NCBI RefSeq assembly: GCF_009931435.1
Contig: NZ_CP043414.1
Length of the DNA stretch: 64,000 nucleotides
Strand: one strand, 5' to 3'
From: Escherichia coli
GTDB taxonomy: Bacteria; Pseudomonadota; Gammaproteobacteria; Enterobacterales; Enterobacteriaceae
Under the pieces are notes generated by a model. That model was not told the origin of the DNA, searched no databases, and was given only the letters and a program-made list of their open reading frames with translations. The translations under genes and the position numbers were made by a program. Shown piece by piece: positions 3,158 through 56,230 of this stretch (position 1 is the first letter of the stretch; the number at the start of each line of letters is the position of its first letter).

Positions 3158-3233
3158 TGGTGCCCGGACTCGGAATCGAACCAAGGACACGGGGATTTTC
3201 AATCCCCTGCTCTACCGACTGAGCTATCCGGGC
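3158..3233 (-). tRNA. pheV: tRNA-Phe (GAA anticodon)
   Basis: Minus-strand sequence GCCCGGATAGCTCAGTCGGTAGAGCAGGGGATTGAAAATCCCCGTGTCCTTGGTTCGATTCCGAGTCCGGGCACCA matches E. coli tRNA-Phe; the CCA end is encoded. Confidence 0.95.
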
Positions 3234-3338: not shown

Positions 3339-4046
3339 TCAGGCAAACCAGGCGGTCCAGGCGGCGGAAAGCGGCATTGCCAGAAGCAATGCTGGAAGCA
3401 TGTTGACCACCGGGAACATTTTAATGCCACAAATGCGTAATCCGGTTGCCAGCAGCAATAAACCGCCTACAGCGCTGAAGTCTGCCATCATCGACGGTGT
3501 GGTCAGCGGTAATATCAGCGCGGCAGCCCACGCCAGCGTTAACTGGATGATCAGTAATGGGATACTAATTACCGACACCGCAATACCCAACGAGCAGGCG
3601 AAGATCATCGCCGTAAAGAAATCGAGAAATGACTTGGCGATTAAAATACTCGGATCGCCGGTCATCCCTTCGTTCATCGCCCCGAAGATCCCGGTGCCGC
3701 TGGCGCAAAACAGGACAATAATCGCGACATAATTCTGAATAAAAGATTCATGCGCTGGCTTCTTACGTGAGTGGCGAAACAGATTTTGCGCTTTGGCGAC
3801 CACTGTATTGACGCCTTTTTCCAGCAGACAAATTTCGCCAATTAGAGCGCCAAGTAGCGTAGCTAAAACCATCGCTGGAAGGTTGGCGCATTTCACCACC
3901 AGTAAAATACCAATCCCCAGCGATGCCAGACCAAAAATAGATGTCATGGAAACGCGGATACGTTCCGGTAAACGTTGGCTGAGCAGAGCGCCGATAACGC
4001 CACCCAGTAAGACTGCACTCGCGTTGATAAAAGGGCCGATGACCAC
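3339..4046 (-). CDS. yqgA: Inner membrane protein YqgA (DUF554 family)
   Basis: 235 aa polytopic membrane protein; length and position between pheV and speC as in K-12. Confidence 0.85.
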   Translation of the reverse strand: MVIGPFINASAVLLGGVIGALLSQRLPERIRVSMTSIFGLASLGIGILLVVKCANLPAMVLATLLGALIGEICLLEKGVNTVVAKAQNLFRHSRKKPAHESFIQNYVAIIVLFCASGTGIFGAMNEGMTGDPSILIAKSFLDFFTAMIFACSLGIAVSVISIPLLIIQLTLAWAAALILPLTTPSMMADFSAVGGLLLLATGLRICGIKMFPVVNMLPALLLAMPLSAAWTAWFA

Positions 4047-27637: not shown

Positions 27638-29614
27638 ATGTCTGACGACATGTCTATGAGTTTGCCTTCGTCAGCGGGCGAACACGGTGTACTACGCTCC
27701 ATGCAGGAGGTTGCAATGAGCTCCCAGGAAGCCAGCAAGATGCTGCGTACTTACAATATTGCCTGGTGGGGCAATAACTATTATGACGTTAACGAGCTGG
27801 GCCACATTAGCGTGTGCCCGGACCCGGACGTCCCGGAAGCTCGCGTCGATCTCGCGCAGTTAGTGAAAACTCGTGAAGCACAGGGTCAGCGTCTGCCTGC
27901 ACTGTTCTGTTTCCCACAGATCCTGCAGCACCGTTTGCGTTCCATTAACGCCGCGTTCAAACGTGCGCGGGAATCCTACGGCTATAACGGCGATTACTTC
28001 CTCGTTTATCCGATCAAAGTTAACCAGCACCGCCGCGTGATTGAATCCCTGATTCATTCGGGCGAACCGCTGGGCCTGGAAGCCGGTTCCAAAGCTGAGT
28101 TGATGGCGGTACTGGCGCATGCTGGCATGACCCGTAGCGTCATCGTGTGCAATGGTTATAAAGACCGCGAATATATCCGCCTGGCATTAATTGGCGAGAA
28201 GATGGGCCATAAGGTCTATCTGGTCATTGAGAAGATGTCAGAAATCGCCATTGTGCTGGATGAAGCAGAACGTCTGAATGTCGTTCCTCGTCTGGGCGTG
28301 CGCGCGCGTCTGGCGTCTCAAGGTTCTGGCAAATGGCAGTCTTCTGGCGGGGAAAAATCGAAGTTCGGCCTGGCGGCGACTCAGGTACTGCAACTGGTTG
28401 AAACCCTGCGTGAAGCCGGACGTCTCGACAGCCTGCAACTGCTGCACTTCCACCTCGGTTCGCAGATGGCGAATATTCGCGATATCGCCACGGGCGTTCG
28501 TGAATCCGCGCGTTTCTATGTGGAACTGCACAAGCTGGGCGTCAATATTCAGTGCTTTGATGTCGGCGGCGGTCTGGGTGTGGACTATGAAGGTACTCGT
28601 TCGCAGTCCGACTGTTCAGTGAATTACGGCCTCAATGAATACGCCAACAACATCATTTGGGCGATTGGCGATGCGTGTGAAGAAAATGGTCTGCCGCATC
28701 CGACAGTAATCACCGAATCAGGTCGTGCGGTGACTGCGCATCACACCGTGCTGGTGTCGAATATCATCGGCGTGGAACGTAACGAATACACGGTGCCGAC
28801 CGCGCCAGCAGAAGACGCACCGCGCGCGCTGCAAAGCATGTGGGAAACCTGGCAGGAGATGCACGAACCGGGAACTCGCCGTTCTCTGCGTGAGTGGTTA
28901 CATGACAGCCAGATGGACTTGCACGATATTCATATCGGCTATTCTTCGGGCACCTACAACCTGCAAGAACGCGCGTGGGCTGAGCAGCTTTATCTGAGCA
29001 TGTGTCATGAAGTGCAAAAGCAGCTGGATCCGCAAAACCGCGCACATCGCCCGATTATCGACGAATTGCAGGAACGTATGGCGGACAAAATGTACGTCAA
29101 CTTCTCGCTGTTCCAGTCGATGCCGGACGCATGGGGGATCGACCAGTTGTTCCCGGTTCTGCCGCTGGCAGGGCTGAATCAAGTTCCGGAGCGGCGCGCC
29201 GTGCTGCTGGATATTACCTGTGACTCTGACGGTGCCATCGACCACTATATCGATGGTGATGGTATTGCCACGACAATGCCTATGCCGGAGTACGATCCAG
29301 AGAATCCGCCGATGCTCGGTTTCTTTATGGTCGGCGCATATCAGGAGATCCTCGGCAACATGCACAACCTGTTTGGTGATACCGAAGCGGTTGATGTGTT
29401 CGTCTTCCCTGATGGTAGCGTAGAAGTGGAACTGTCTGACGAAGGCGATACCGTGGCGGACATGCTGCAATATGTACAGCTCGATCCGAAAACGCTGTTA
29501 ACCCAGTTCCGTGATCAAGTGAAGAAAACCGATCTTGATGCTGAACTGCAACAACAGTTCCTGGAAGAGTTCGAGGCAGGTTTGTACGGTTATACCTATC
29601 TTGAAGATGAATAA
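27638..29614 (+). CDS. speA: Biosynthetic arginine decarboxylase
   Basis: ORF trimmed to [21 protein letters not shown] start (658 aa). Confidence 0.95.
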
Positions 29615-29759
29615 TTAAGATTATTCCGCTATCGGGTCGATTTATTTACGTAAATCGGCCCGCTTTCTTTTTATATATTCTTAAAAATAATTTAGCTGCT
29701 TTCCTTATTGAATAATCTCCCTACAATCGCTGCATTAATTAAATGCAGAGGGAACGGTT

Positions 29760-30491
29760 ATGAAAAAATGGAAAGTACGTAGCGCGTTGGTGGCATTAGT
29801 CGTGCTGTTGGCCGGTTGTTCCAGTAATGCGCAGTATAATAGCAGTGCATCGGGCAATGTCGGCACCGCCTGGGGTGGGGATGTGCACTCAACGGTTCAG
29901 GGCGTATCTGCTGAACGAGCCTGGCGCGATCCGGCAGAGATGATCGTTATTAGTTATTCGACTAATGTTCCTTCCGGCTACGACCGCGTTTATAGCATTC
30001 GTATTAACGAACTTGAATATGCTATTCGCGATGGTAATTTTAATTCTCTACCTATTACGCGGGTTTATAATTCATCAGGTAAAGAACTACGCTATATAGT
30101 CCATGCCAGAGTAGGAATGAATTACCAATTATATGTCCGCAATTACAGTCGTAACACCAACTACGAGATCGTTGCGACAGTTGATGGCCTGGATGTTCTC
30201 AATGGTAAACAAGGTTCCCTGAATAACAACGGCTATATTGTGAATGCCGGGGATTCGTTGGCGATTAAAGGATTCCGCAAAGATAAACATACCGAAGCGG
30301 CTTTTCAGTTCGCCAACGTTGCGGATTCCTACGCAGCCAATTCGGCGCAAGGCGATGTGCGTAATACCGGTGTAATTGGCTTTGCAGCTTTCGAATTGCA
30401 AGGCCCGGCGCAAAACACGCTGCCGCCGTGCTCTGGACAAGCCTTCCCGGCAGATAACAATGGCTATGCGCCGCCACCGTGTCGGAAATAG
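29760..30491 (+). CDS. Predicted lipoprotein of unknown function (not present at this position in K-12 as far as I recall)
   Basis: 243 aa; signal peptide with lipobox LAGC; N/S/Y/G-rich; AT-rich coding sequence with rare ATA/AGT/AGA codons; preceded by an AT-rich gap. Confidence 0.7.
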   Translation: MKKWKVRSALVALVVLLAGCSSNAQYNSSASGNVGTAWGGDVHSTVQGVSAERAWRDPAEMIVISYSTNVPSGYDRVYSIRINELEYAIRDGNFNSLPITRVYNSSGKELRYIVHARVGMNYQLYVRNYSRNTNYEIVATVDGLDVLNGKQGSLNNNGYIVNAGDSLAIKGFRKDKHTEAAFQFANVADSYAANSAQGDVRNTGVIGFAAFELQGPAQNTLPPCSGQAFPADNNGYAPPPCRK

Positions 30492-30626
30492 TAACCTCGC
30501 TTGATGCCTCGCCCATTTAAGGCGATAATTAGCACAAAATTGTGTTTCGCAAATCCAACCCTTCCTCGTCGGGCCTAACGACGCGGAAGGGTTTTTTTAT
30601 ATCGACTTTGTAATAGGAGTCCACCC

Positions 30627-31547
30627 ATGAGCACCTTAGGTCATCAATACGATAACTCACTGGTTTCCAACGCCTTTGGTTTTTTACGCCTGCCGATGAA
30701 CTTCCAGCCGTATGACAGCGATGCTGACTGGGTAATTACCGGCGTGCCGTTCGATATGGCCACTTCTGGTCGTGCGGGTGGACGCCACGGTCCAGCGGCG
30801 ATCCGTCAGGTTTCGACGAATCTGGCCTGGGAACACAACCGCTTCCCGTGGAATTTCGACATGCGCGAGCGTCTGAACGTGGTGGACTGTGGCGATCTGG
30901 TGTATGCCTTCGGCGATGCTCGTGAGATGAGCGAGAAGCTGCAGGCGCATGCTGAAAAGCTGCTGGCTGCCGGTAAGCGTATGCTCTCCTTCGGTGGTGA
31001 CCACTTTGTCACGCTGCCACTGCTGCGTGCTCATGCGAAGCATTTCGGCAAAATGGCGCTGGTACACTTTGACGCCCACACCGATACCTATGCGAACGGT
31101 TGTGAATTTGACCACGGCACTATGTTCTATACCGCGCCGAAAGAAGGTCTGATCGACCCGAATCACTCCGTACAGATTGGTATTCGTACCGAGTTTGATA
31201 AAGACAACGGCTTTACCGTACTGGACGCCTGCCAGGTGAACGATCGCAGCGTGGATGACGTTATCGCCCAGGTGAAACAGATTGTAGGTGATATGCCAGT
31301 TTACCTGACTTTTGATATCGACTGCCTGGATCCTGCTTTCGCGCCGGGCACCGGTACGCCGGTGATCGGCGGCCTGACCTCCGATCGCGCCATTAAACTG
31401 GTACGTGGCCTGAAAGATCTCAACATTGTTGGGATGGACGTAGTGGAAGTGGCTCCGGCATACGATCAGTCGGAAATCACCGCTCTGGCAGCAGCGACGC
31501 TGGCGCTGGAGATGCTGTATATTCAGGCGGCGAAAAAGGGCGAGTAA
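30627..31547 (+). CDS. speB: Agmatinase
   Basis: 306 aa [43 protein letters not shown]; arginase-fold metal ligands. Confidence 0.95.
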
Positions 31548-31805
31548 TTCGCTAAATATTTCCCGGTGTGCATAGTCATGCCGGGAAACATTCATCAGTG
31601 CGATATATGTTTTTATATTTCTACGCGACTTTTTCTTAGCTCTGTTCACCTGCCTGGTTGTTTCAGAACATAAGTAATATTTAAAACACGAATATTCAGA
31701 AACCAGATTGTCACAAGGAATATTAATTCTTCCCGGTAGTTCTCATTCTTACGTTTACAAATAGTGTATGTTCTGAACAACTATTGTTTTTTAAGCGGTA
31801 AAGAA

Positions 31806-34604
31806 ATGAGACGGATTGATGTTATTTGCAAGGAGCTGGAGCGACTGACGTATGGGCTGGAACTGTCTGATTTAGCGAAGGAGAAAGCATTTACTGCTGA
31901 GGCGATTGGTTTTAACCTTGGGCTGGCACGTAACTCGGTTAGTAAAGATCTTAATCAATTATGGAATGAAGGCCTGGTGGTAAAAAGTCAGGGACGTCCT
32001 GTTTTTTTTCTACATCGTCACGCACTAGAATTGCTCATTAATCGAAAACTGGATGATTGCGAATGCATAGTTCATTCAGTGGCTAGTTTATTGCCAAAGA
32101 AAGAAAAATATACAGATGATGATCCGTTTTCCGGACTTATCGGATACGACCGTAGTCTCCGTGATGCGGTAGAAAAAGGCCGCGCAGCGGTGCTCTATCC
32201 CCACGGACTGCATGTGCTGTTAACCGGGGCATCTGGTGTTGGCAAAACATTCTTTGCTGAGTTAATGCATTGCTTCGCTTGTAAGCACACCATAGGTTCG
32301 CCACCTCCGTTGGTTTACTTTAACTGTGCCGAATATGCTCATAATCCGGAGTTGCTTTCCTCTCATCTGTTTGGTCACCATAAGGGGGCATTTACCGGGG
32401 CAAGCGAGAATAAAACGGGGCTGGTGGAGCAAGCTGACGGAGGTTATTTACTTCTGGATGAAGTGCATCGCCTCCCGTATGAAGGACAAGAGAAGCTCTT
32501 TTCTATTCTCGATAAAGGTGAATACCGCCCGCTTGGTTCAAGTGGGCCAACATATTCAATTTCGGTGCGCCTTATTTGCGCCACCACAGAGTTGGTCAAC
32601 TCCTCACTATTGCGTACCTTCCAGCGGCGTATCCAGGTGTATATCGACTTACCGGGTATTCGCCAGCGTTCGGTCGAGGAGCAACTCGAATTGATTGTCA
32701 GCTTCTTCCAGCGCGAAAGTCGTAAAATTGAACGTACCATAAGCCTTGATAAAACCCTTTTGCACTGGTTGTTAAGTAAACCCCTGGAAGGCAATATCGG
32801 CCAGCTTAAAAGCGATATTCAGTTCTTGTGCGCGCAGGCGTGGGCGTCGGGAATGACCGAGCGCAATGATACACTAGAGTTAGATAAACGACTGGCGGAG
32901 ATGCCGTTTAATACCACGCCGGAGCAGCGCCTGCTGGTCGATGCGTTGTTTGGCGGTAAAGATCGTTTGAACGTGGATGCGCGTACGTTGCCCGCGTTAA
33001 AAAATTCGTTGGCGACCAGCGCGGAAATAGAAGAGAGCGATCTGTTTTACAGTTTCCTGACTCGTGAATATGTCAATCTGCGCAACAGTAACGTGCCGCC
33101 CGCAGAAACGCTGGCTATCCTGAAAAACAAACTCAGTTCGATTTTTGAATACGGTCTCTATAGCCGCCATAGTACGGCGCATCCACCGCGCTATGGCGAT
33201 CAAATTGAGGAGCGGGTGACGTTGCTGATCGGTTACGTGGAGCAGGTATTAGGATTTACGTTGCCAGAAAACCTGGCGAACCCGTTACGTAAACACTTTC
33301 TTGCGCTGATTGGCTATGTGCGGCGAGGGCTTATACCTCAACTCTATTCCTCCAGCTTGATTCTGGATCGCTGTAAAGATGAGTATGACAATGCCACGCT
33401 TCTGTGCCGCAAAATCAATGAGCTGCTGCATATTCAGTGCCCGGCGATGGAGGTGGTCTGGCTGTGCCTGTTCCTGAAAGAGTGTCGCCACTACCGCCAG
33501 CGCATCGACACCAGCCCGGATTGCGGCGTGATTCTAATCGCTCACGGTGCGACCACCGCAACGAGCCAGGCGCAATATGTGAATCGGGTGCTGGAGCGCG
33601 ATCTGTTCTACGCAATTGATATGCCATTTGAGCAGTCGGTGCATGACACCCTGGAAACCCTGACCCGGATGATTCAGGACCGGTGCTGGCAGCGGCTGAT
33701 ACTGATGGTGGATATCGGATCGCTGGTTCATTTTGGCAGCACCATCAGCAAGCTGTTCCAGATTGACGTTCTGTTGTTGCCAAATATCACTCTGACCAGC
33801 CTGCTGGAGGTGGGGCTGGATTTAAGCTACGAAACTGGGGATCTATCGCAATTGGCTGTGCTTATGCAGAGTAAAAATATCCCTTGTCGGCTCTGCACGC
33901 CGCAGCAAGAGAGCGGTGGCAAAGTGCTGGTTATCTCATGTATAACCGGAATGGGGACGGCAGAAAAGATCAAAAAAGTGCTGGAGGAGAGCTTTGGCGA
34001 GCTGATGTCGCAGGACACGCGTATGGTGATTCTCGACTATAACGAGGTGCGCAGCCTGGAGCGTATTCAGCAGGCGCTTAATGCCAGTGAACGGCTGGCA
34101 GGGATCGTCGGCACCTTCCAGCCGGGACTGCCGGATATTCCGTTTATCTCGCTGGAGGAACTGTTTTCCGAGCAAGGGCCGGAGCTGGTGCTTAGCCTGC
34201 TGACTCCGGATCTCTCAAGCAGCGAGCGCCGACTGGAGATGGAGCGCAGCGCCATGCGCTTTATCAGCGCGCTGACCATGGAGAGCATCATCAACCATAT
34301 TTCGGTGCTCAACCCGCAGCGAATTCTGAAAGAGATCGAGGACGTTCTGAACCACTTAACCAACACGCTCTCCCTGAAACCGAGCCGCCAGGTGACACTA
34401 CGTTTTCTGATCCATTGCTGCTGCATGGTCGAGCGTATCGTGATTAACCGCAAACCGTTACAGATGGCGCTGGAAAACCGGCTTGATCTGGACGCTCGTG
34501 CCTTTAGCGTCATCAAATCCTCCTTTTTGCCGATTGAAGAGGCTTACGCTATCCGTTTATCGGACGCAGAATATTTTTATATCTACGAACTGCTCTACAG
34601 CTGA
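31806..34604 (+). CDS. Sigma-54-dependent LevR-type transcriptional activator with PTS regulation domains (DgaR-like)
   Basis: Start chosen at MRRIDVICKELERL (ORF extends 14 codons further upstream); Walker A GASGVGKT; GAFTGA motif (HHKGAFTGASENKTG); about 930 aa, a size that accommodates PRD/EII-like regulatory domains. Confidence 0.8.
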   Translation: MRRIDVICKELERLTYGLELSDLAKEKAFTAEAIGFNLGLARNSVSKDLNQLWNEGLVVKSQGRPVFFLHRHALELLINRKLDDCECIVHSVASLLPKKEKYTDDDPFSGLIGYDRSLRDAVEKGRAAVLYPHGLHVLLTGASGVGKTFFAELMHCFACKHTIGSPPPLVYFNCAEYAHNPELLSSHLFGHHKGAFTGASENKTGLVEQADGGYLLLDEVHRLPYEGQEKLFSILDKGEYRPLGSSGPTYSISVRLICATTELVNSSLLRTFQRRIQVYIDLPGIRQRSVEEQLELIVSFFQRESRKIERTISLDKTLLHWLLSKPLEGNIGQLKSDIQFLCAQAWASGMTERNDTLELDKRLAEMPFNTTPEQRLLVDALFGGKDRLNVDARTLPALKNSLATSAEIEESDLFYSFLTREYVNLRNSNVPPAETLAILKNKLSSIFEYGLYSRHSTAHPPRYGDQIEERVTLLIGYVEQVLGFTLPENLANPLRKHFLALIGYVRRGLIPQLYSSSLILDRCKDEYDNATLLCRKINELLHIQCPAMEVVWLCLFLKECRHYRQRIDTSPDCGVILIAHGATTATSQAQYVNRVLERDLFYAIDMPFEQSVHDTLETLTRMIQDRCWQRLILMVDIGSLVHFGSTISKLFQIDVLLLPNITLTSLLEVGLDLSYETGDLSQLAVLMQSKNIPCRLCTPQQESGGKVLVISCITGMGTAEKIKKVLEESFGELMSQDTRMVILDYNEVRSLERIQQALNASERLAGIVGTFQPGLPDIPFISLEELFSEQGPELVLSLLTPDLSSSERRLEMERSAMRFISALTMESIINHISVLNPQRILKEIEDVLNHLTNTLSLKPSRQVTLRFLIHCCCMVERIVINRKPLQMALENRLDLDARAFSVIKSSFLPIEEAYAIRLSDAEYFYIYELLYS

Positions 34605-34668
34605 TCCCCTGATTTACGGGGCTTAAGGCCTCATCCAATCTCTTTTCCTCTGAGCGTGACACAAATTC

Positions 34669-34683
34669 TGGCACGTCCTTTGC
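34669..34683 (+). promoter_or_regulatory. Sigma-54 (RpoN) -24/-12 promoter for the PTS operon
   Basis: TGGCAC-GTCCT-TTGC matches the TGGCAC-N5-TTGC consensus exactly, about 40 nt upstream of the EIIA start and just downstream of the activator gene. Confidence 0.7.
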
Positions 34684-34722
34684 TCCTGACGAAATGTAAA
34701 CACTGGAGCAAAGGAGGCTATT

Positions 34723-35151
34723 TTGACCACAACTGTATCTATTCATCCGTTACCTGAAATTTTGCTGCTAACTCACGGCGGCTGGGGGCTGCAGCTCTGC
34801 AACAGTCTGCGCATGGTGATGGGCGAAATCGAAGGCGTGACGGAAATCGCGCTGATGCCTGTCGATACGCTGGGCGAGTTTTACCAGCGCGTCGAAGCCG
34901 TGGTGAAAACCATGCCAGAAGGTTCGCTTATCGTGACCGATTTTATCGGCGGCACCACCTCTAACGTGGCGGCGCGGCTGAGCGCCGATTATCCGGTGGC
35001 GGTGATCTCCGGGCTTAATGCCTCGCTGCTGCTGGAGGCGCTGGACAAGCGCGAACATGGCCCACTGACCGCCTGCGTGGCCGATCTGGTGGAAGCTGGG
35101 CGCAACAGTTGCCTGGACGTCGTCTCCCATATTCGTCAATTACAACAGTAA
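34723..35151 (+). CDS. PTS mannose-family EIIA component (DgaA-like)
   Basis: 142 aa; TTG start 5 nt after AAGGAGG; EIIA-Man-like N-terminal region (LLLTHGGWG) with candidate phosphorylatable His. Confidence 0.75.
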   Translation: MTTTVSIHPLPEILLLTHGGWGLQLCNSLRMVMGEIEGVTEIALMPVDTLGEFYQRVEAVVKTMPEGSLIVTDFIGGTTSNVAARLSADYPVAVISGLNASLLLEALDKREHGPLTACVADLVEAGRNSCLDVVSHIRQLQQ

Positions 35152-35161
35152 GGAAAATCGT

Positions 35162-35647
35162 ATGGCAAACATCGTGTTATGTCGCATTGACAGCCGTCTT
35201 ATCCACGGACAGGTGGTGACGAAGTGGGTGGGGCAATCCCAGGCCAACCGTATTGCGGTGGTCAGCGACGAGCTGGATGCCGATCCGTTTATGAAAAATA
35301 TCTACCTGATGGCCGCGCCGCCGAATATCAAAGTGGACTGCTTCAGCAACCAGAGCTTCGCGGCCGCGTGGAAAGACAACCAGCTGGGCGACGGCAACGT
35401 GCTGGTGCTGTTCCCGTCGCTGGCGGCGATTCAGGAAGCGGTGCAGCAGGGCTTTGACGTGGCTGATATTCAGGTTGGCGGCTTAGGCGGCGGGCCAAAC
35501 CGTAAAGCGGTGTTCCAGAACATAACTCTGGATGAAAAAGACGTTGGCATTCTTAACGATTTGAAAAGTCGCGGCATTAAGGCTGTTTTCCAGACCATCC
35601 CGGAAGATAAGCCGCAGTCGCTGGACGATATCCTGAAAAAATTCTGA
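35162..35647 (+). CDS. PTS mannose/sorbose-family EIIB component (DgaB-like)
   Basis: 161 aa; MANIVLCRIDSRLIHGQVVTKW is the EIIB-Man N-terminal signature including the phospho-His. Confidence 0.8.
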   Translation: MANIVLCRIDSRLIHGQVVTKWVGQSQANRIAVVSDELDADPFMKNIYLMAAPPNIKVDCFSNQSFAAAWKDNQLGDGNVLVLFPSLAAIQEAVQQGFDVADIQVGGLGGGPNRKAVFQNITLDEKDVGILNDLKSRGIKAVFQTIPEDKPQSLDDILKKF

Positions 35648-35672
35648 CCCTCTGAACATGGGATAACAAATT

Positions 35673-36422
35673 ATGGATACCTTACTTTTTGCAAGCCTGA
35701 TGGGGCTGTATTACTGGTTTGCCCGGTTGCGCCTTGGCTATACCTTCTCCGCCATGCTGTTACAGCCAGTGGTGGTGGCGGTCTTTGTCGGCCTGCTGCT
35801 CGGCAACATGCCTGCGGCGATGATTATCGGCGCGGGGATGCAGTTGGTATATCTGGGTGTGACCTCAACGCCAGGCGGCAATGTGCCGTCAGACCCGGCG
35901 CTGGCGGCCTGTATCGCCATTCCTATCGCCGTTAAGGCCAATATGGACCCGAACCTGGCGATTGCACTGGCGATTCCATTTGGCGTTATCGGCGTATTCC
36001 TCGACCAGTTGCGTCGCACGCTAAATGCGGCCTGGGTGCATATGGCCGATAAACACGCGGAAACGGCCAATATGTCAGCCATTATGCGCTGCGCCTTTCT
36101 CTACCCGGCGCTGCTGGGGCTGGTGCTACGTTTCCCAGTGGTGTTCGCCGCCAACTACTTCGGCCAGAACGTAGTGGAAAGTTTCCTCAAGCTGATGCCG
36201 CACTGGCTGACCCACTCGTTTGAAATCATGGGCGGGATTCTCCCGGCGCTGGGCTTCGCCATCACCATTATGGTGATTGGTAAAAAGAGCCTACTGCCGT
36301 GGTTTATCGGCGGATTCTTCGCGGTGCTGTACCTCAAGGTGGACATCATGGCGATGGCGATTTTCGGCACCTGCGTGGCCTTCCTGATTAAAGGCCTGGC
36401 GAAAAATGAAGGAGCGGCATAA
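35673..36422 (+). CDS. PTS mannose-family EIIC component (DgaC-like)
   Basis: 249 aa polytopic membrane protein in EIIB-EIIC-EIID order. Confidence 0.8.
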   Translation: MDTLLFASLMGLYYWFARLRLGYTFSAMLLQPVVVAVFVGLLLGNMPAAMIIGAGMQLVYLGVTSTPGGNVPSDPALAACIAIPIAVKANMDPNLAIALAIPFGVIGVFLDQLRRTLNAAWVHMADKHAETANMSAIMRCAFLYPALLGLVLRFPVVFAANYFGQNVVESFLKLMPHWLTHSFEIMGGILPALGFAITIMVIGKKSLLPWFIGGFFAVLYLKVDIMAMAIFGTCVAFLIKGLAKNEGAA

Positions 36423-37279
36423 TGAGCGGCGGCGTAATGCAGCATGAACTGGTGGAGCGCGCGCGGGAGTCCGGGGCGCTGACCAAAGCGGATATCACCA
36501 AAGCGTGGTTTATCTACTGGCTTGGCGCGGAAGTTTCCAGCTCCTATGAGCGTTTACAGAGCCTGATTTTCTGCGCCTCGATGACGCCGATTATTAAAAA
36601 GCTCTATCCGCAAAAGGAGGAGCAGGTGGAGGCGTTAAAACGCCATCTGAACTTCTTCAACTCAGAGCAGACGTTTGGCGCGGTGATCCAGGGGATCTCC
36701 ATCGCCATGGAAGAGCAAAAGACCCGCGGCGAGGCGATTAACGATGCCTCTATCACCGGGATTAAAACCGGCCTGATGGGGCCGCTGGCCGGAATGGGCG
36801 ACTCCATCATCTGGGCGGCCGTGATGCCGCTGTTGATTGCTATTTTTATCCCGTTCGCCGCCAATGGCAGCGCAATGGGCGGTATTTTGCCGCTGATTCT
36901 CTACCCGGCGATTACGCTGGCAATCAGCTACGGCATGGTGCACAAGGGCTATACGCTAGGGCGCGATTCGATTATCAGCCTGCTGCAGGGGGGGCGCATC
37001 AAGGAGCTTATCTACGGCGCTAACGTACTGGGGCTTATCATGATGGGTGCGCTATCCGCGAGCTTTGTCAAGATAACCTCACCTTTAAAAATTAGCGCAC
37101 TGAAAGGCTCTGAAGTGGTGGTACAGCAGATTCTTGACTCCATCGCGCCCGGCCTACTGCCGCTGGCGGCAGTGTTCGCGATCTACTTCTATCAGGTGAA
37201 AAAGGGACCGCGTTACACCACGATTTTGCTGTCAATTGTGGCGTTGAGCGTGGTCTGCTCGCTGCTGGGAGTGCTGTAA
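36422..37279 (+). CDS. PTS mannose-family EIID component (DgaD-like)
   Basis: 285 aa; start shares one nt with the EIIC stop; soluble N-terminal part then membrane helices, typical of EIID-Man. Confidence 0.8.
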   Translation: MSGGVMQHELVERARESGALTKADITKAWFIYWLGAEVSSSYERLQSLIFCASMTPIIKKLYPQKEEQVEALKRHLNFFNSEQTFGAVIQGISIAMEEQKTRGEAINDASITGIKTGLMGPLAGMGDSIIWAAVMPLLIAIFIPFAANGSAMGGILPLILYPAITLAISYGMVHKGYTLGRDSIISLLQGGRIKELIYGANVLGLIMMGALSASFVKITSPLKISALKGSEVVVQQILDSIAPGLLPLAAVFAIYFYQVKKGPRYTTILLSIVALSVVCSLLGVL

Positions 37280-37282
37280 GCC

Positions 37283-38392
37283 ATGACGCAGAATATCTAT
37301 CAACAACTGGGGCTGAAACAAGTGATTAACGCTTGCGGTAAGATGACGATTCTCGGCGTCTCCAGTGTCGCGCCGGAGGTGATGCAGGCCACCGCGCGTG
37401 CGGCATCCTCTTTCGTGGAGATTGATCAGCTGGTGGACAAAACCGGCGAGCTGGTCTCTCGCTTTACCGGGGCGGAGGATAGCTACGTTACCTCCTGCGC
37501 CTCGGCAGGGATCGCCATCGCTATCGCCGCCGCCATTACCCGCGGCGACAAGGCCCGGGTGGCGCTCATGCCGGATAGCTCCGGCATGGCCAATGAAGTG
37601 GTGATGCTGCGCGGCCATAACGTCGATTACGGCGCATCGATCCTCAGCGCGATCCGCTTAGGCGGCGGGCGCGTGGTGGAGGTGGGGTCAAGTAACCTGG
37701 CGGCTCTCTGGCAGCTGGAGAGTGCCATTACCGACGCGACCGCCGCGCTGCTGTATGTGAAGTCGCATCACTGCGTGCAGAAGGGGATGTTGAACATCGA
37801 GGACTTCGCCCAAGTCGCGCAGATGCACAACCTGCCGTTGATTGTCGATGCCGCCGCCGAAGAGGATTTACGTGCCTGGGTGGTGAGCGGAGCGGATATG
37901 GTGGTCTACAGCGGCGCAAAAGCCTTTAACGCGCCTACCTCCGGGTTTATCACTGGTAAAAAAATCTGGATTGCAGCCTGTAAAGCGCAGCATTACGGCA
38001 TTGCCAGGGCGATGAAAATCGGCAAGGAGAACATGGTTGGGCTGGTTTACGCGCTGGAGAATTATCACCAGGGGCAGGCAATCATCACCGCGGAACAGCT
38101 CCAGCCAGTGGTTGAAGCGATTTCTGCGATTCACGGGTTAACGGCTGATATTGAGCAGGATGAAGCCGGGCGTGCAATCTGGCGTATTCGTATTCGGGTA
38201 AATGCGCAAGAATTTGGAGTTGCCGCTCGCGTCGTCGAAGCGCAACTGCGTGGTGGCGATATCGCGATTTATACACGGCGGTATAACCTCCACCAGGGCG
38301 TTTTTAGCCTTGATCCGCGTACGGTGGCGGATGGGGAGATGGCGCTTATCGTGGCGCGACTGAAGGAGATTGCAGATCATGCAAAAGATTAA
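37283..38392 (+). CDS. SelA-like PLP-dependent enzyme, putative sugar-acid-6-phosphate ammonia-lyase (DgaE-like)
   Basis: 369 aa; Gly/Ala-rich fold-type I PLP-like core (SCASAGIAIAIAAAI, SGAKAF with candidate PLP lysine); follows the PTS genes. Confidence 0.65.
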   Translation: MTQNIYQQLGLKQVINACGKMTILGVSSVAPEVMQATARAASSFVEIDQLVDKTGELVSRFTGAEDSYVTSCASAGIAIAIAAAITRGDKARVALMPDSSGMANEVVMLRGHNVDYGASILSAIRLGGGRVVEVGSSNLAALWQLESAITDATAALLYVKSHHCVQKGMLNIEDFAQVAQMHNLPLIVDAAAEEDLRAWVVSGADMVVYSGAKAFNAPTSGFITGKKIWIAACKAQHYGIARAMKIGKENMVGLVYALENYHQGQAIITAEQLQPVVEAISAIHGLTADIEQDEAGRAIWRIRIRVNAQEFGVAARVVEAQLRGGDIAIYTRRYNLHQGVFSLDPRTVADGEMALIVARLKEIADHAKD

Positions 38393-39122
38393 TTTCTATC
38401 ATAATCGTGTGGCAATTAATGTGCTGGCGAAAGATATCGCCAATGCCCGTGAAATCTATGACGCCGCCGAAGGCCACGCGGTGATTGGCGTGCTTTCCGC
38501 GCAGTTCTCCTCGGTGGATGAGGGGATCCAGGAAGTTAAACGTTGGATGGCGGAAATACCGTCCATTTCAGTAGGTCTGGGGGCGGGTGACCCGGCGCAG
38601 TATTACAAAGCTGCGATGATTGCGGCGCAGATTCATCCAGCACACGTTAACCAGACCTTTACCGGTTGTGGTTTCGCGGCAGGCGCGCTTGCGACGACGG
38701 GCGGTGAGCAGACCCATGTCAACGCGCTGGTTAGCCCGACGGGAACGCCGGGCGAAGTGCTGATTTCCACTGGCGTTAGCAGCAGCCAGGGTACGCCTGC
38801 CCGCGTATCCTGCGATACGGCAGTGCGAATGATGCTAGATATGGGCGCACACGCGGCGAAGTTCTTTCCGATGGGCGGCGAGAAGTCGCTTCCGGAGCTA
38901 TACGCGCTGGCGACCACGGCGGCGCGCAATGGTATGACGCTGATTGAGCCAACCGGCGGGATTGATTTGGATAACTTCAGTGTGATTCTAAAAACTTGTC
39001 TGGAGGCGGGTGTGCCGCGCATTATGCCGCATGTTTACAGCTCGATTATAGACCCTGATACGGGATATACCCGACCGGATGATGTAGCCGTTTTGCTGAA
39101 TAAAGTGAAATCACTACTCTGA
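38379..39122 (+). CDS. Putative KDGP/KDPG-type aldolase (DgaF-like), family assignment tentative
   Basis: About 247 aa from ATG at 38379 (the track ORF starts 9 nt earlier at a TTG); overlaps the end of the preceding gene; last gene of the operon. Confidence 0.55.
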   Translation: MQKINFYHNRVAINVLAKDIANAREIYDAAEGHAVIGVLSAQFSSVDEGIQEVKRWMAEIPSISVGLGAGDPAQYYKAAMIAAQIHPAHVNQTFTGCGFAAGALATTGGEQTHVNALVSPTGTPGEVLISTGVSSSQGTPARVSCDTAVRMMLDMGAHAAKFFPMGGEKSLPELYALATTAARNGMTLIEPTGGIDLDNFSVILKTCLEAGVPRIMPHVYSSIIDPDTGYTRPDDVAVLLNKVKSLL

Positions 39123-39177
39123 TCGGGGATTCAGGCGTTACCGACCTACAATTATGTTGTAGATCGGTATGTCTGAC

Positions 39178-42213: not shown

Positions 42214-42420
<207 letters not shown>

Positions 42421-56027: not shown

Positions 56028-56230
56028 CTCAAGGCCCGCTCTGCGGGTCTTTTTTTCGCCAAAAGCAAAATTGCCTGATGCGCTACGCTTATCAGGCCTA
56101 CATGTATCCTGCAATATACTGAATTTACAGGCTTTTGTAGGCTGGATAAGGCGTTCACGCCGCATCCGGCATGACAAAGTGCACATTGATATCTGTCTGA
56201 GCCCCGCTCTGCGGATCTTTTTTCACCATA
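56028..56230. repeat. REP/BIME cluster bounded by duplicated terminator-like hairpins
   Basis: CCCGCTCTGCGGGTCTTTTTTT (56037-56058) and CCCGCTCTGCGGATCTTTTTT (56206-56226) flank REP units GCCTGATGCGCTACGCTTATCAGGCC and GGATAAGGCGTTCACGCCGCATCCGGC. Confidence 0.6.

Follow-up and report, generated by a model that had tools for sequence, protein, structure and literature searches.

A predicted lipoprotein gene in the speA–speB spacer of Escherichia coli that is conserved in enterobacteria and absent from K-12

INTRODUCTION

In Escherichia coli K-12 the genes speA and speB are separated by a short gap, as stated in an earlier reading of the present locus made from the DNA letters alone (the sequence-only reading); in MG1655 this gap measures 137 bp and contains no further gene. 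In the window, which is the whole stretch of 64,000 nt analyzed here (E. coli contig NZ_CP043414.1 of assembly GCF_009931435.1), the speA–speB spacer extends over 1012 bp (29615–30626), from the end of speA at position 29614 to the start of speB at position 30627, and an open reading frame (ORF) with the N-terminus of a lipoprotein is found within it. The locus raises the question of whether this gene was horizontally acquired, as the sequence-only reading had proposed, or whether it is an old gene that K-12 has lost, and of what its product does. We found no literature on the localization, expression or function of the gene or of its domain family.

RESULTS

A protein-coding gene between speA and speB

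The ORF list places three genes in a row on the plus strand. The upstream neighbor is speA (27638–29614), coding for the biosynthetic arginine decarboxylase and named after the RefSeq annotation both of a 99.4% identical locus and of K-12; the downstream neighbor is speB (30627–31547), coding for agmatinase. Between them, at 29760–30491, lies a coding sequence of 243 aa that starts with ATG and ends with TAG followed by TAA, so that the ORF described in the sequence-only reading was confirmed inside the exact spacer. A Shine–Dalgarno sequence GAGGG (29748–29752, plus strand) was read 7 nt 5' of the ATG, and its GGGA/AGGA core is conserved in an alignment of the spacers of 12 enterobacterial loci. 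Homologues of the predicted protein were found in many genera with E-values from 1e-150 down to 1e-33 (287 in the first search), and the dN/dS ratio amounts to 0.09–0.12 within E. coli and to 0.07–0.15 in comparison with Salmonella and Klebsiella. These data show that the ORF is a real protein-coding gene under purifying selection. A pseudogene or a chance ORF was considered as well and was rejected on the grounds of the same homologues and the same dN/dS values within E. coli.

The composition of the gene differs from that of its neighbors. We observed a GC content of 48.6% (GC3 46.7%), compared to 54.1% (60.8%) for speA and 55.3% (62.5%) for speB, which means that the gene lies 5–7 points below its flanks in this window. 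The 145-bp spacer upstream of the gene has a GC content of only 33.8%, and the share of strictly rare codons is 4.1% in the gene compared to 0.3–0.8% in speA, speB and metK. The AT-rich, rare-codon character and the AT-rich upstream region that had been noticed before are thus borne out by the counts, and so is the richness of the mature protein in Asn (10.3%), Ser (8.9%), Tyr (6.2%) and Gly (9.4%).

Presence and absence among complete E. coli genomes

Next, we investigated the distribution of the spacer by megablast of the 1012-bp sequence against 5426 complete E. coli genomes, where a match over at least 80% of the spacer was counted as presence. The segment was found in 3550 genomes (65%), while the remaining ones match only the last ~77 bp. 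The sequence-only reading would have given way if most E. coli carried the gene at this site, and this is what we observed. For the reciprocal search we used a query composed of the 3' end of speA, the K-12-type spacer of 137 bp and the start of speB, and this junction was found in 1867 of the 5426 genomes. Either the presence allele or the K-12-type junction is carried by 5417 of the 5426 genomes; a disrupted state was observed in a few genomes, for example in strain N10, where the gene is truncated by IS1. Carriers of the gene include EPEC E2348/69, APEC O2 strains, strain uk_P46212 and CDC clinical isolates, and carriers of the K-12-type junction include MG1655, C600, J53, E. coli C and ATCC 8739. 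The allele of our window is rare: identity to it reaches 98% or more in only about ten genomes and amounts to ~95–96% in most others; speA and speB of the window are equally divergent from other E. coli (95–96%).

The spacer alignment and the junction in the 1867 genomes define a segment of 877 bp (29615–30491, plus strand) that is absent from K-12-type genomes and comprises a terminator-like hairpin (T1, see below), the candidate promoter and the coding sequence. Over its whole length the 137-bp spacer of K-12-type genomes aligns only with the 135 bp downstream of the gene (30492–30626). The two parts of this alignment are of very different quality: the last 77 bp are 99–100% identical to the presence allele, whereas the first ~60 bp show an identity of just ~46–50% (31–34 of 68 columns, with any Escherichia) and match the Escherichia presence alleles no better than those of Citrobacter or Klebsiella. 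Because of this low identity the K-12-type allele cannot be regarded as a plain recent deletion from a present-day allele. A search for direct repeats that could have mediated the deletion gave only imperfect repeats of 15–22 nt, which are at chance level and whose positions do not fit the junction. The best 60 of the 1867 K-12-type junctions are 100% identical over 211 bp.

Position and divergence of the gene in enterobacteria

To place the gene in its wider context we fetched 90 loci and clustered the flanking ORFs by all-against-all BLAST. Apart from E. coli, the gene was found in E. albertii, E. whittamii, E. fergusonii and further Escherichia sp. isolates, and homologues with 53–77% amino acid identity occur in Salmonella, Citrobacter, Klebsiella, Kluyvera, Raoultella, Enterobacter, Kosakonia, Phytobacter, Intestinirhabdus and Entomohabitans. 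We observed speA upstream of the gene in 10 genera at a median distance of 146 bp and speB downstream of it in 9 genera at a median distance of 136 bp. Klebsiella shows the order speA, lipoprotein gene, speB; in Salmonella, speA and the lipoprotein gene are followed by unrelated genes, with no adjoining speB. Within E. coli, the dS values for the same strain pairs range from 0.09 to 0.19 for the lipoprotein gene, from 0.13 to 0.22 for speA and from 0.11 to 0.23 for speB. From this agreement it follows that the gene shares the history of its flanks. As far as can be judged from these comparisons, the gene appears to have resided in the speA–speB spacer since before the enterobacterial genera diverged.

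In every genus compared, the GC content of the gene was found to be 1–13 points lower than that of speA and speB, and it rises in hosts with higher GC content (55% in Enterobacter, 59.8% in Intestinirhabdus). Such a low GC content would be consistent with a gene that has long resided at its site, is expressed weakly and codes for much Asn, Tyr and Ile. In the ORF list no integrase, IS element or tRNA gene flanks the gene, and the search for insertion-type repeats found none.

These observations bear on the proposed horizontal origin, according to which the gene would be an islet acquired between speA and speB by some E. coli and kept silent by H-NS. The difference in GC content to the flanks (48.6% versus 54–55%) and the low GC content of the upstream spacer, the rare codons (4.1% versus under 1% in the neighbors) and the absence from K-12 would all suit an islet of this kind. 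However, a recent arrival is hard to bring in line with the same position in 9–10 genera, with dS values that match those of speA and speB, with a GC content that lies under that of the flanks in each of the genera and is higher in hosts of higher GC content, with the lack of flanking insertion repeats, integrase or tRNA, and with a carriage of 65% among E. coli. We therefore dismiss the horizontal origin as highly improbable. Binding of H-NS taken on its own is a possibility that we would grant with considerable doubt, given the AT-rich promoter region, but silencing by H-NS is no longer needed as an explanation. Taken together, it is quite probable that the lipoprotein gene is ancestral at the speA–speB site, vertically inherited and organized as a transcription unit of its own, and that the state of K-12 is a derived loss: a single derived haplotype, devoid of T1, the candidate promoter and the coding sequence, is shared by K-12 and roughly a third of E. 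coli.

Terminators and promoters in the spacer

The organization of the spacer was analyzed by terminator and promoter scans, RNA folding and an alignment of 12 enterobacterial loci. Just 3' of the speA stop codon we found T1 (29633–29672, plus strand), a hairpin resembling an intrinsic terminator with its stem at 29633–29662 and a U-rich tract. The terminator scan gave 13 pairs and a 4-nt loop, and RNA folding gave −18.4 kcal/mol (z = −5.1). Across 12 enterobacterial sequences 93.9% of the cells pair, with 9 of the 13 pairs changed on both sides; this covariation was reached by none of 500 shuffles, and slid controls pair in only 20–47% of the cells. The preserved pairing and the compensatory changes argue that T1 is a conserved terminator of speA.

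Between T1 and the ATG the sole element conserved in position is the −10-like hexamer TACAAT (29722–29727, plus strand), which appears as TACAAT, TACTAT, TACACT or TAAGCT in the 12 loci and which we regard as the candidate promoter of the lipoprotein gene. A good −35 partner for this hexamer was not found and the consensus promoter scan did not call it; the putative promoter is probably weak or activator-dependent. Downstream of the gene, the promoter scan reported TTGATG-17-GATAAT (30501–30529, plus strand). Its GATAAT does not vary among 10 enterobacterial sequences, one of them the K-12-type spacer, which keeps the element in the form TTGAnn-17-GATAAT as well as its distance to the hairpin that follows, and this promoter-like element probably serves speB. 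The hairpin in question, T2 (30557–30600, plus strand), was detected as an inverted repeat and by RNA folding (−24.4 kcal/mol, z = −4.6). It is terminator-like, with the hairpin at 30557–30593 followed by U7, lies 27 nt before the ATG of speB and is kept in K-12, with 99–100% identity in K-12-type genomes. An Rfam search of 29400–30800 found no RNA family. As the gene is bracketed by two terminator-like hairpins, it appears to be an independent transcription unit, which would consist of the speA terminator T1, a weak promoter of its own, the coding sequence and the hairpin T2.

Signal peptide and predicted sorting

The N-terminus of the predicted protein reads MKKWKVRSALVALVVLLAG-C20-SS. An n-region MKKWKVR with three Lys and one Arg is followed by the h-region SALVALVVLLAG, so that a charged segment precedes a hydrophobic one as in a signal peptide. 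For the lipobox we searched the pattern [LVI][ASTVI][GAS]C with the Cys located 15–35 residues from the start, and found it as L-A-G-C20 with Ser at both +2 and +3. By this reading residues 1–19 form the signal peptide (29760–29819, plus strand, including the lipobox), and Cys20 (29817–29819) is the predicted acylated N-terminus of the mature protein. The classical lipobox LAGC noticed in the sequence-only reading thus holds, and a lipobox is also present in 247 of 269 full-length family members. Asp at position +2, the signal for retention in the inner membrane in Enterobacteriaceae, was observed in none of the 269. According to these established sorting rules, the gene is predicted to encode an outer-membrane-type lipoprotein. 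The precursor would be exported by Sec and lipidated at Cys20 by Lgt, LspA and Lnt, and Lol would transfer it to the outer membrane because residue +2 is Ser and not Asp. A tether of ~13 residues would then hold a β-sandwich domain in the periplasm.

A large family without a curated model

In a profile search of 1.84 billion representative proteins we found 4228 clusters (50% identity) at E ≤ 1e-3, of which 3263 reach E ≤ 1e-10. The family occurs in Enterobacterales, Neisseria/Kingella, Acinetobacter/Psychrobacter/Moraxella, Pseudomonas, Halomonas, Comamonadaceae, Ralstonia, Paracoccus/Pseudorhodobacter, Inquilinus and Myxococcota, and all members are annotated as 'hypothetical', 'lipoprotein' or 'outer membrane lipoprotein'. 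The libraries searched gave no assignment: Pfam showed no match for the lipoprotein at E ≤ 10, nor for any of 17 diverse relatives at E ≤ 0.001, NCBIfam only matches to the signal peptide far under the cut-offs, PADLOC no match, and the sequence profile search of the PDB a best match of E = 0.41. The earlier statement that no family can be recognized for the protein agrees with these results. The lipoprotein gene is entered in RefSeq as hypothetical in thousands of genomes, and its domain family has no curated model in the libraries used.

The invariant residues of the family include W38, G39, R53, Y66, Y122, N128, S130, E136, D142, G143, Y159, F172, R173, Y191, A237 and P240. We observed two variations of the architecture. 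Some members are circularly permuted, with the core domain first and the 'LGTxYGE' segment after it, and retain AFPxxxRYAPPPP as their C-terminus. In high-GC members the lipobox is followed by P/A/S-rich linkers of about 100–130 residues.

Predicted fold and C-terminal tail

An AlphaFold2 model based on an alignment of 25 sequences reached a mean pLDDT of 82.9 and a pTM of 0.74. The model, together with the invariant columns, delimits a predicted β-sandwich core of residues ~33–215 (29856–30404, plus strand), which contains the invariant motifs GTxWG, TVDGLDV, GFRK and NxGVIG and is all-β with pLDDT values mostly between 86 and 97. In Foldseek the search against AFDB50 returned only family members. 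The best fold matches were MATH/TRAF-like and DUF7918-type sandwiches, with no enzyme fold among them; the modeled fold can be described as a MATH/DUF7918-type sandwich by resemblance and not by membership, and no functional annotation is attached to it.

Residues 216–243 (30405–30488, plus strand) form a C-terminal tail that is modeled with low confidence (pLDDT 60–64). It contains Cys224 (30429–30431) and Cys241 (30480–30482) and ends in Arg-Lys. The tail pointed out in the sequence-only reading as PPCSGQ...PPPCRK reads in full LPPC224SGQAFPADNNGYAPPPC241RK and is followed by the tandem stops TAG TAA. Within it, the motif F229-P230...Y236-A237-P-P239-P240 is conserved: the pattern [FWY][PQ]...[YF]AxPP was found in 219 of 269 members, almost always 0–5 residues from the C-terminus. 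The two cysteines covary, since 75 of the 269 members have both, 149 have neither, 10 have only the first and none has only the second. From this covariation we infer that a Cys224–Cys241 disulfide is likely and hence that the tail is located in an oxidizing environment, either in the periplasm or at the surface. The predicted pair would pin the tail at the C-terminus.

Genomic context outside the enterics

Beyond the speA/speB synteny of the enterics, the clustering of flanking ORFs in the 90 loci revealed no partner gene common to the lineages. In Comamonadaceae the gene is found in the order hisD, lipoprotein gene, a Rap1a-like gene (Pfam E = 7.3e-6), hisC; in Providencia it lies between metJ and a gene for an outer-membrane-protein-like product. 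Acinetobacter shows yggS, uppP and one more gene followed by two tandem copies of the lipoprotein gene, and in Psychrobacter two tandem copies follow pgsA. The small secreted neighbor in Acinetobacter is unrelated to the Rap1a-like protein of Variovorax, which has no counterpart in Acinetobacter. A paralogue in Trabulsiella is arranged as ynfD, paralogue, ynfC and a SpeG-like acetyltransferase. As the context is not conserved outside the enterics, it points to no functional partner.

DISCUSSION

For the function of the lipoprotein we tentatively favor a non-catalytic binding or adaptor module of the envelope, a reading that could well turn out to be wrong. We arrive at it because the predicted fold is a sandwich of the peptide-binding type with no enzyme-like fold among its matches, because the short flexible motif stays C-terminal even after circular permutation, and because the gene is dispensable. 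The free C-terminal peptide F-P...Y-A-P-P-P would dock onto an envelope partner. The function of such an adaptor would be dispensable under many conditions, and for this reason the gene could be lost. A broader version of this picture, which we consider rather doubtful, applies to the family as a whole: a large, mainly proteobacterial family with some members in Myxococcota would combine a lipid anchor and a sandwich known to date only from uncharacterised eukaryotic models of the DUF7918 type with a C-terminal peptide. This peptide, which in enterics would be fastened by the disulfide, would serve an envelope machine as a signal for docking or sorting that has not been described before, and the family would have been overlooked since K-12 deleted the gene.

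The invariant polar residues R53, N128, S130, E136, D142 and R173 would also fit an active site, which speaks against an adaptor. An enzyme, that is a periplasmic hydrolase or transferase instead of a binding module, would moreover be in line with the clustering of E136, D142, D145, R173, K174, N128, S130, Y122, Y159 and Y191 in short motifs. The protein shows no similarity to any catalytic fold or family, however, and its best fold matches are sandwiches of the peptide-binding type, so that we judge an enzyme to be unlikely. Somewhat more remote still is a protective inhibitor or immunity lipoprotein directed against an enzyme that degrades the cell wall, for instance a lysozyme or a T6SS amidase, comparable to MliC/PliG or Rap/Tsi. 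The predicted small periplasmic β-sandwich would suit this role, as would the Rap1a-family neighbor in Comamonadaceae, the tandem duplicates in Acinetobacter and Psychrobacter, which are common for immunity genes, and the variable presence among strains. On the other hand, we found neither a PADLOC match nor a sequence or fold match to known inhibitor families; the Rap1a neighbor is specific to its lineage, the neighbor in Acinetobacter is unrelated, no effector gene lies nearby, and the strong conservation over ~220 residues together with vertical inheritance is atypical for immunity genes.

As the gene keeps its place between speA and speB in no fewer than 9 genera, a role linked to polyamines could be suggested, with the lipoprotein as an envelope partner of SpeA or of agmatine/putrescine traffic, and such a role would account for the conserved location. 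In Trabulsiella, moreover, a SpeG-like acetyltransferase is found two genes away from the paralogue. We nevertheless regard this role as improbable: terminator hairpins on both sides indicate that co-transcription is not intended by design, the neighbors outside the enterics are unrelated (his operon, metJ, uppP/yggS, pgsA), the Salmonella gene adjoins speA without speB beside it, and K-12 makes putrescine without the lipoprotein gene. The C-terminus, finally, resembles that of Lpp, which ends in Y-R-K. Our protein ends in C-R-K and many distant members in Y-R-K, and the tail is flexible, so that one could imagine a tether anchored in the outer membrane by its lipid, with L,D-transpeptidases cross-linking Lys243 to peptidoglycan. 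But of the members bearing the motif 82 end in Lys, 56 in Arg and 20 in Tyr, the conserved element is YAPPP and not the terminal Lys, the model contains no coiled coil, and the NCBIfam Lpp/OprI match (E = 0.38) concerns the signal peptide only. The chance of such a tether is very slim.

What we describe is by prediction a gene for an outer-membrane-type lipoprotein and as such nothing out of the ordinary; its product is a conserved enterobacterial envelope protein that escaped study because the model strain deleted the gene. As K-12 is devoid of the gene, the K-12 knockout collections, expression compendia and interaction maps cannot cover it, although it is under purifying selection and is present in Salmonella, Klebsiella, Citrobacter and the majority of E. 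coli genomes. The protein shows clearly that a conserved component of the envelope can be absent from the model strain, and it belongs to a family that has no Pfam or NCBIfam model despite thousands of members; its characterization would close a minor gap in our inventory of the outer-membrane lipoproteins of enterobacteria. The locus also illustrates that 'absent from K-12 and AT-rich' does not equal 'horizontally acquired'.

Among known systems, the E. coli lipoproteins LpoB, RcsF and NlpI are sorted to the outer membrane by Lol and serve as adaptors of the envelope. The protein described here is like them in its signal peptide of the Sec/Lgt/LspA type with a lipobox, in a +2 residue other than Asp, in being encoded by a non-essential gene and in its short unstructured tether followed by a small globular periplasmic domain, which is predicted in our case. 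It differs in that no sequence or fold similarity to them is seen, and the three proteins are without the conserved proline-rich motif at the C-terminus. DUF7918 and MATH(TRAF)-like domains, to which the modeled fold comes closest, show 9–22% identity and no Pfam HMM match and belong to cytosolic proteins of eukaryotes; no function is known for DUF7918. Lpp/OprI share the features of an outer-membrane-type lipoprotein ending in Arg-Lys, but they are coiled coils whereas the model predicts a β-sandwich, and the family studied here shows no conservation of the terminal Lys. In comparison with other strain-variable genes lost from K-12, the lipoprotein gene is similar in that it occurs in 65% of complete genomes and that its absence is one uniform haplotype; it is set apart by its location outside any mobile island and by a presence that appears to be ancestral.

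Divergence of the speA–speB spacer

When we compared the 137-bp speA–speB spacer of the K-12 type with those Escherichia spacers that contain the lipoprotein gene (presence alleles), we observed a sharp break after its first ~60 bp. This first part, for which we compared positions 30492–30549 of the window with positions 3941–4000 of L002, a locus carrying the K-12-type spacer, shows only ~46–50% identity to the matching stretch of any presence allele, while the following 77 bp are 99–100% identical to the presence alleles.

The haplotype of the window (speA–lipoprotein gene–speB, 27638–31547) is rare: among 5426 complete genomes, only about 10 reach 98% identity to it over the spacer. Compared to the alleles of a B2-type APEC strain (L091) and of strain 2013C_3964 (L092), each of the three genes shows a dS of ~0.2, and these two alleles are closer to one another (dS 0.09–0.13) than either is to the window haplotype. 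Independent inactivations of the lipoprotein gene were observed as well. In strain N10 (L093, 2748–3934) it is truncated by IS1 and the upstream region is rearranged (actS, tRNA-Gly), and in Shigella dysenteriae it is represented by fragments of 174–181 aa.

Sequence elements upstream and downstream of speB

By combining a promoter scan, RNA folding and an alignment we found a promoter-like sequence, TTGATG-17-GATAAT, in the region directly upstream of speB (30501–30626), followed after 27 nt by T2, a terminator-like hairpin (30557–30593) with a U7 tract; the speB start comes next. In all 10 aligned enterobacterial sequences, including the K-12-type spacer, the GATAAT hexamer is unchanged. Judged from its sequence, this element looks like a candidate speB promoter, and its leader of ~90 nt would include the terminator; because of this position within the leader, T2 may act as an attenuator. 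Elsewhere in the window, a tRNA and two members of the ES036 (CssrF) sRNA family match Rfam models above the gathering score (3161–3233 (−), 42312–42354 (+) and 56094–56136 (−)).

Downstream, a 7.6-kb insertion (31548–39177) lies between speB and loiP. It encodes the sigma-54-dependent regulator DagR, the IIA, IIB, IIC and IID components of a mannose-family PTS, and two enzymes, the D-glucosaminate-6-phosphate ammonia lyase DgaE and the aldolase DagF; both enzymes and DagR exceed the NCBIfam equivalog cut-offs. In our locus comparison the insertion is missing in K-12 and in strain R32_14_1F, the carrier of the nearest lipoprotein allele, and strain 2013C_3964 has dagR, i.e. its beginning.

Relatives of the lipoprotein at other loci

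Three family members (P0265, P0266 and P0281) show a circularly permuted domain, in which the core leads and the N-terminal ‘LGTxYGE’ segment is shifted behind it, while AFPxxxRYAPPPP stays at the extreme C-terminus. In other members the lipobox is followed by a P/A/S-rich linker of about 100–130 residues. Tandem paralogue pairs occur in Acinetobacter (L050, L058, L071, L073, L076, L085) and Psychrobacter (L047, L089), and in Comamonadaceae the homologue lies within the his operon (Variovorax, L005, 6001–7205) in the order hisD, homologue, Rap1a-like gene (Pfam Rap1a, E = 7.3e-6), hisC. In Trabulsiella guamensis a 38%-identical relative (L009, 5001–5759) is found outside the speA site, flanked by ynfD (DUF1161) and ynfC (UPF0257) and two genes from a SpeG-like acetyltransferase, a second proximity to a polyamine gene that is probably coincidental.
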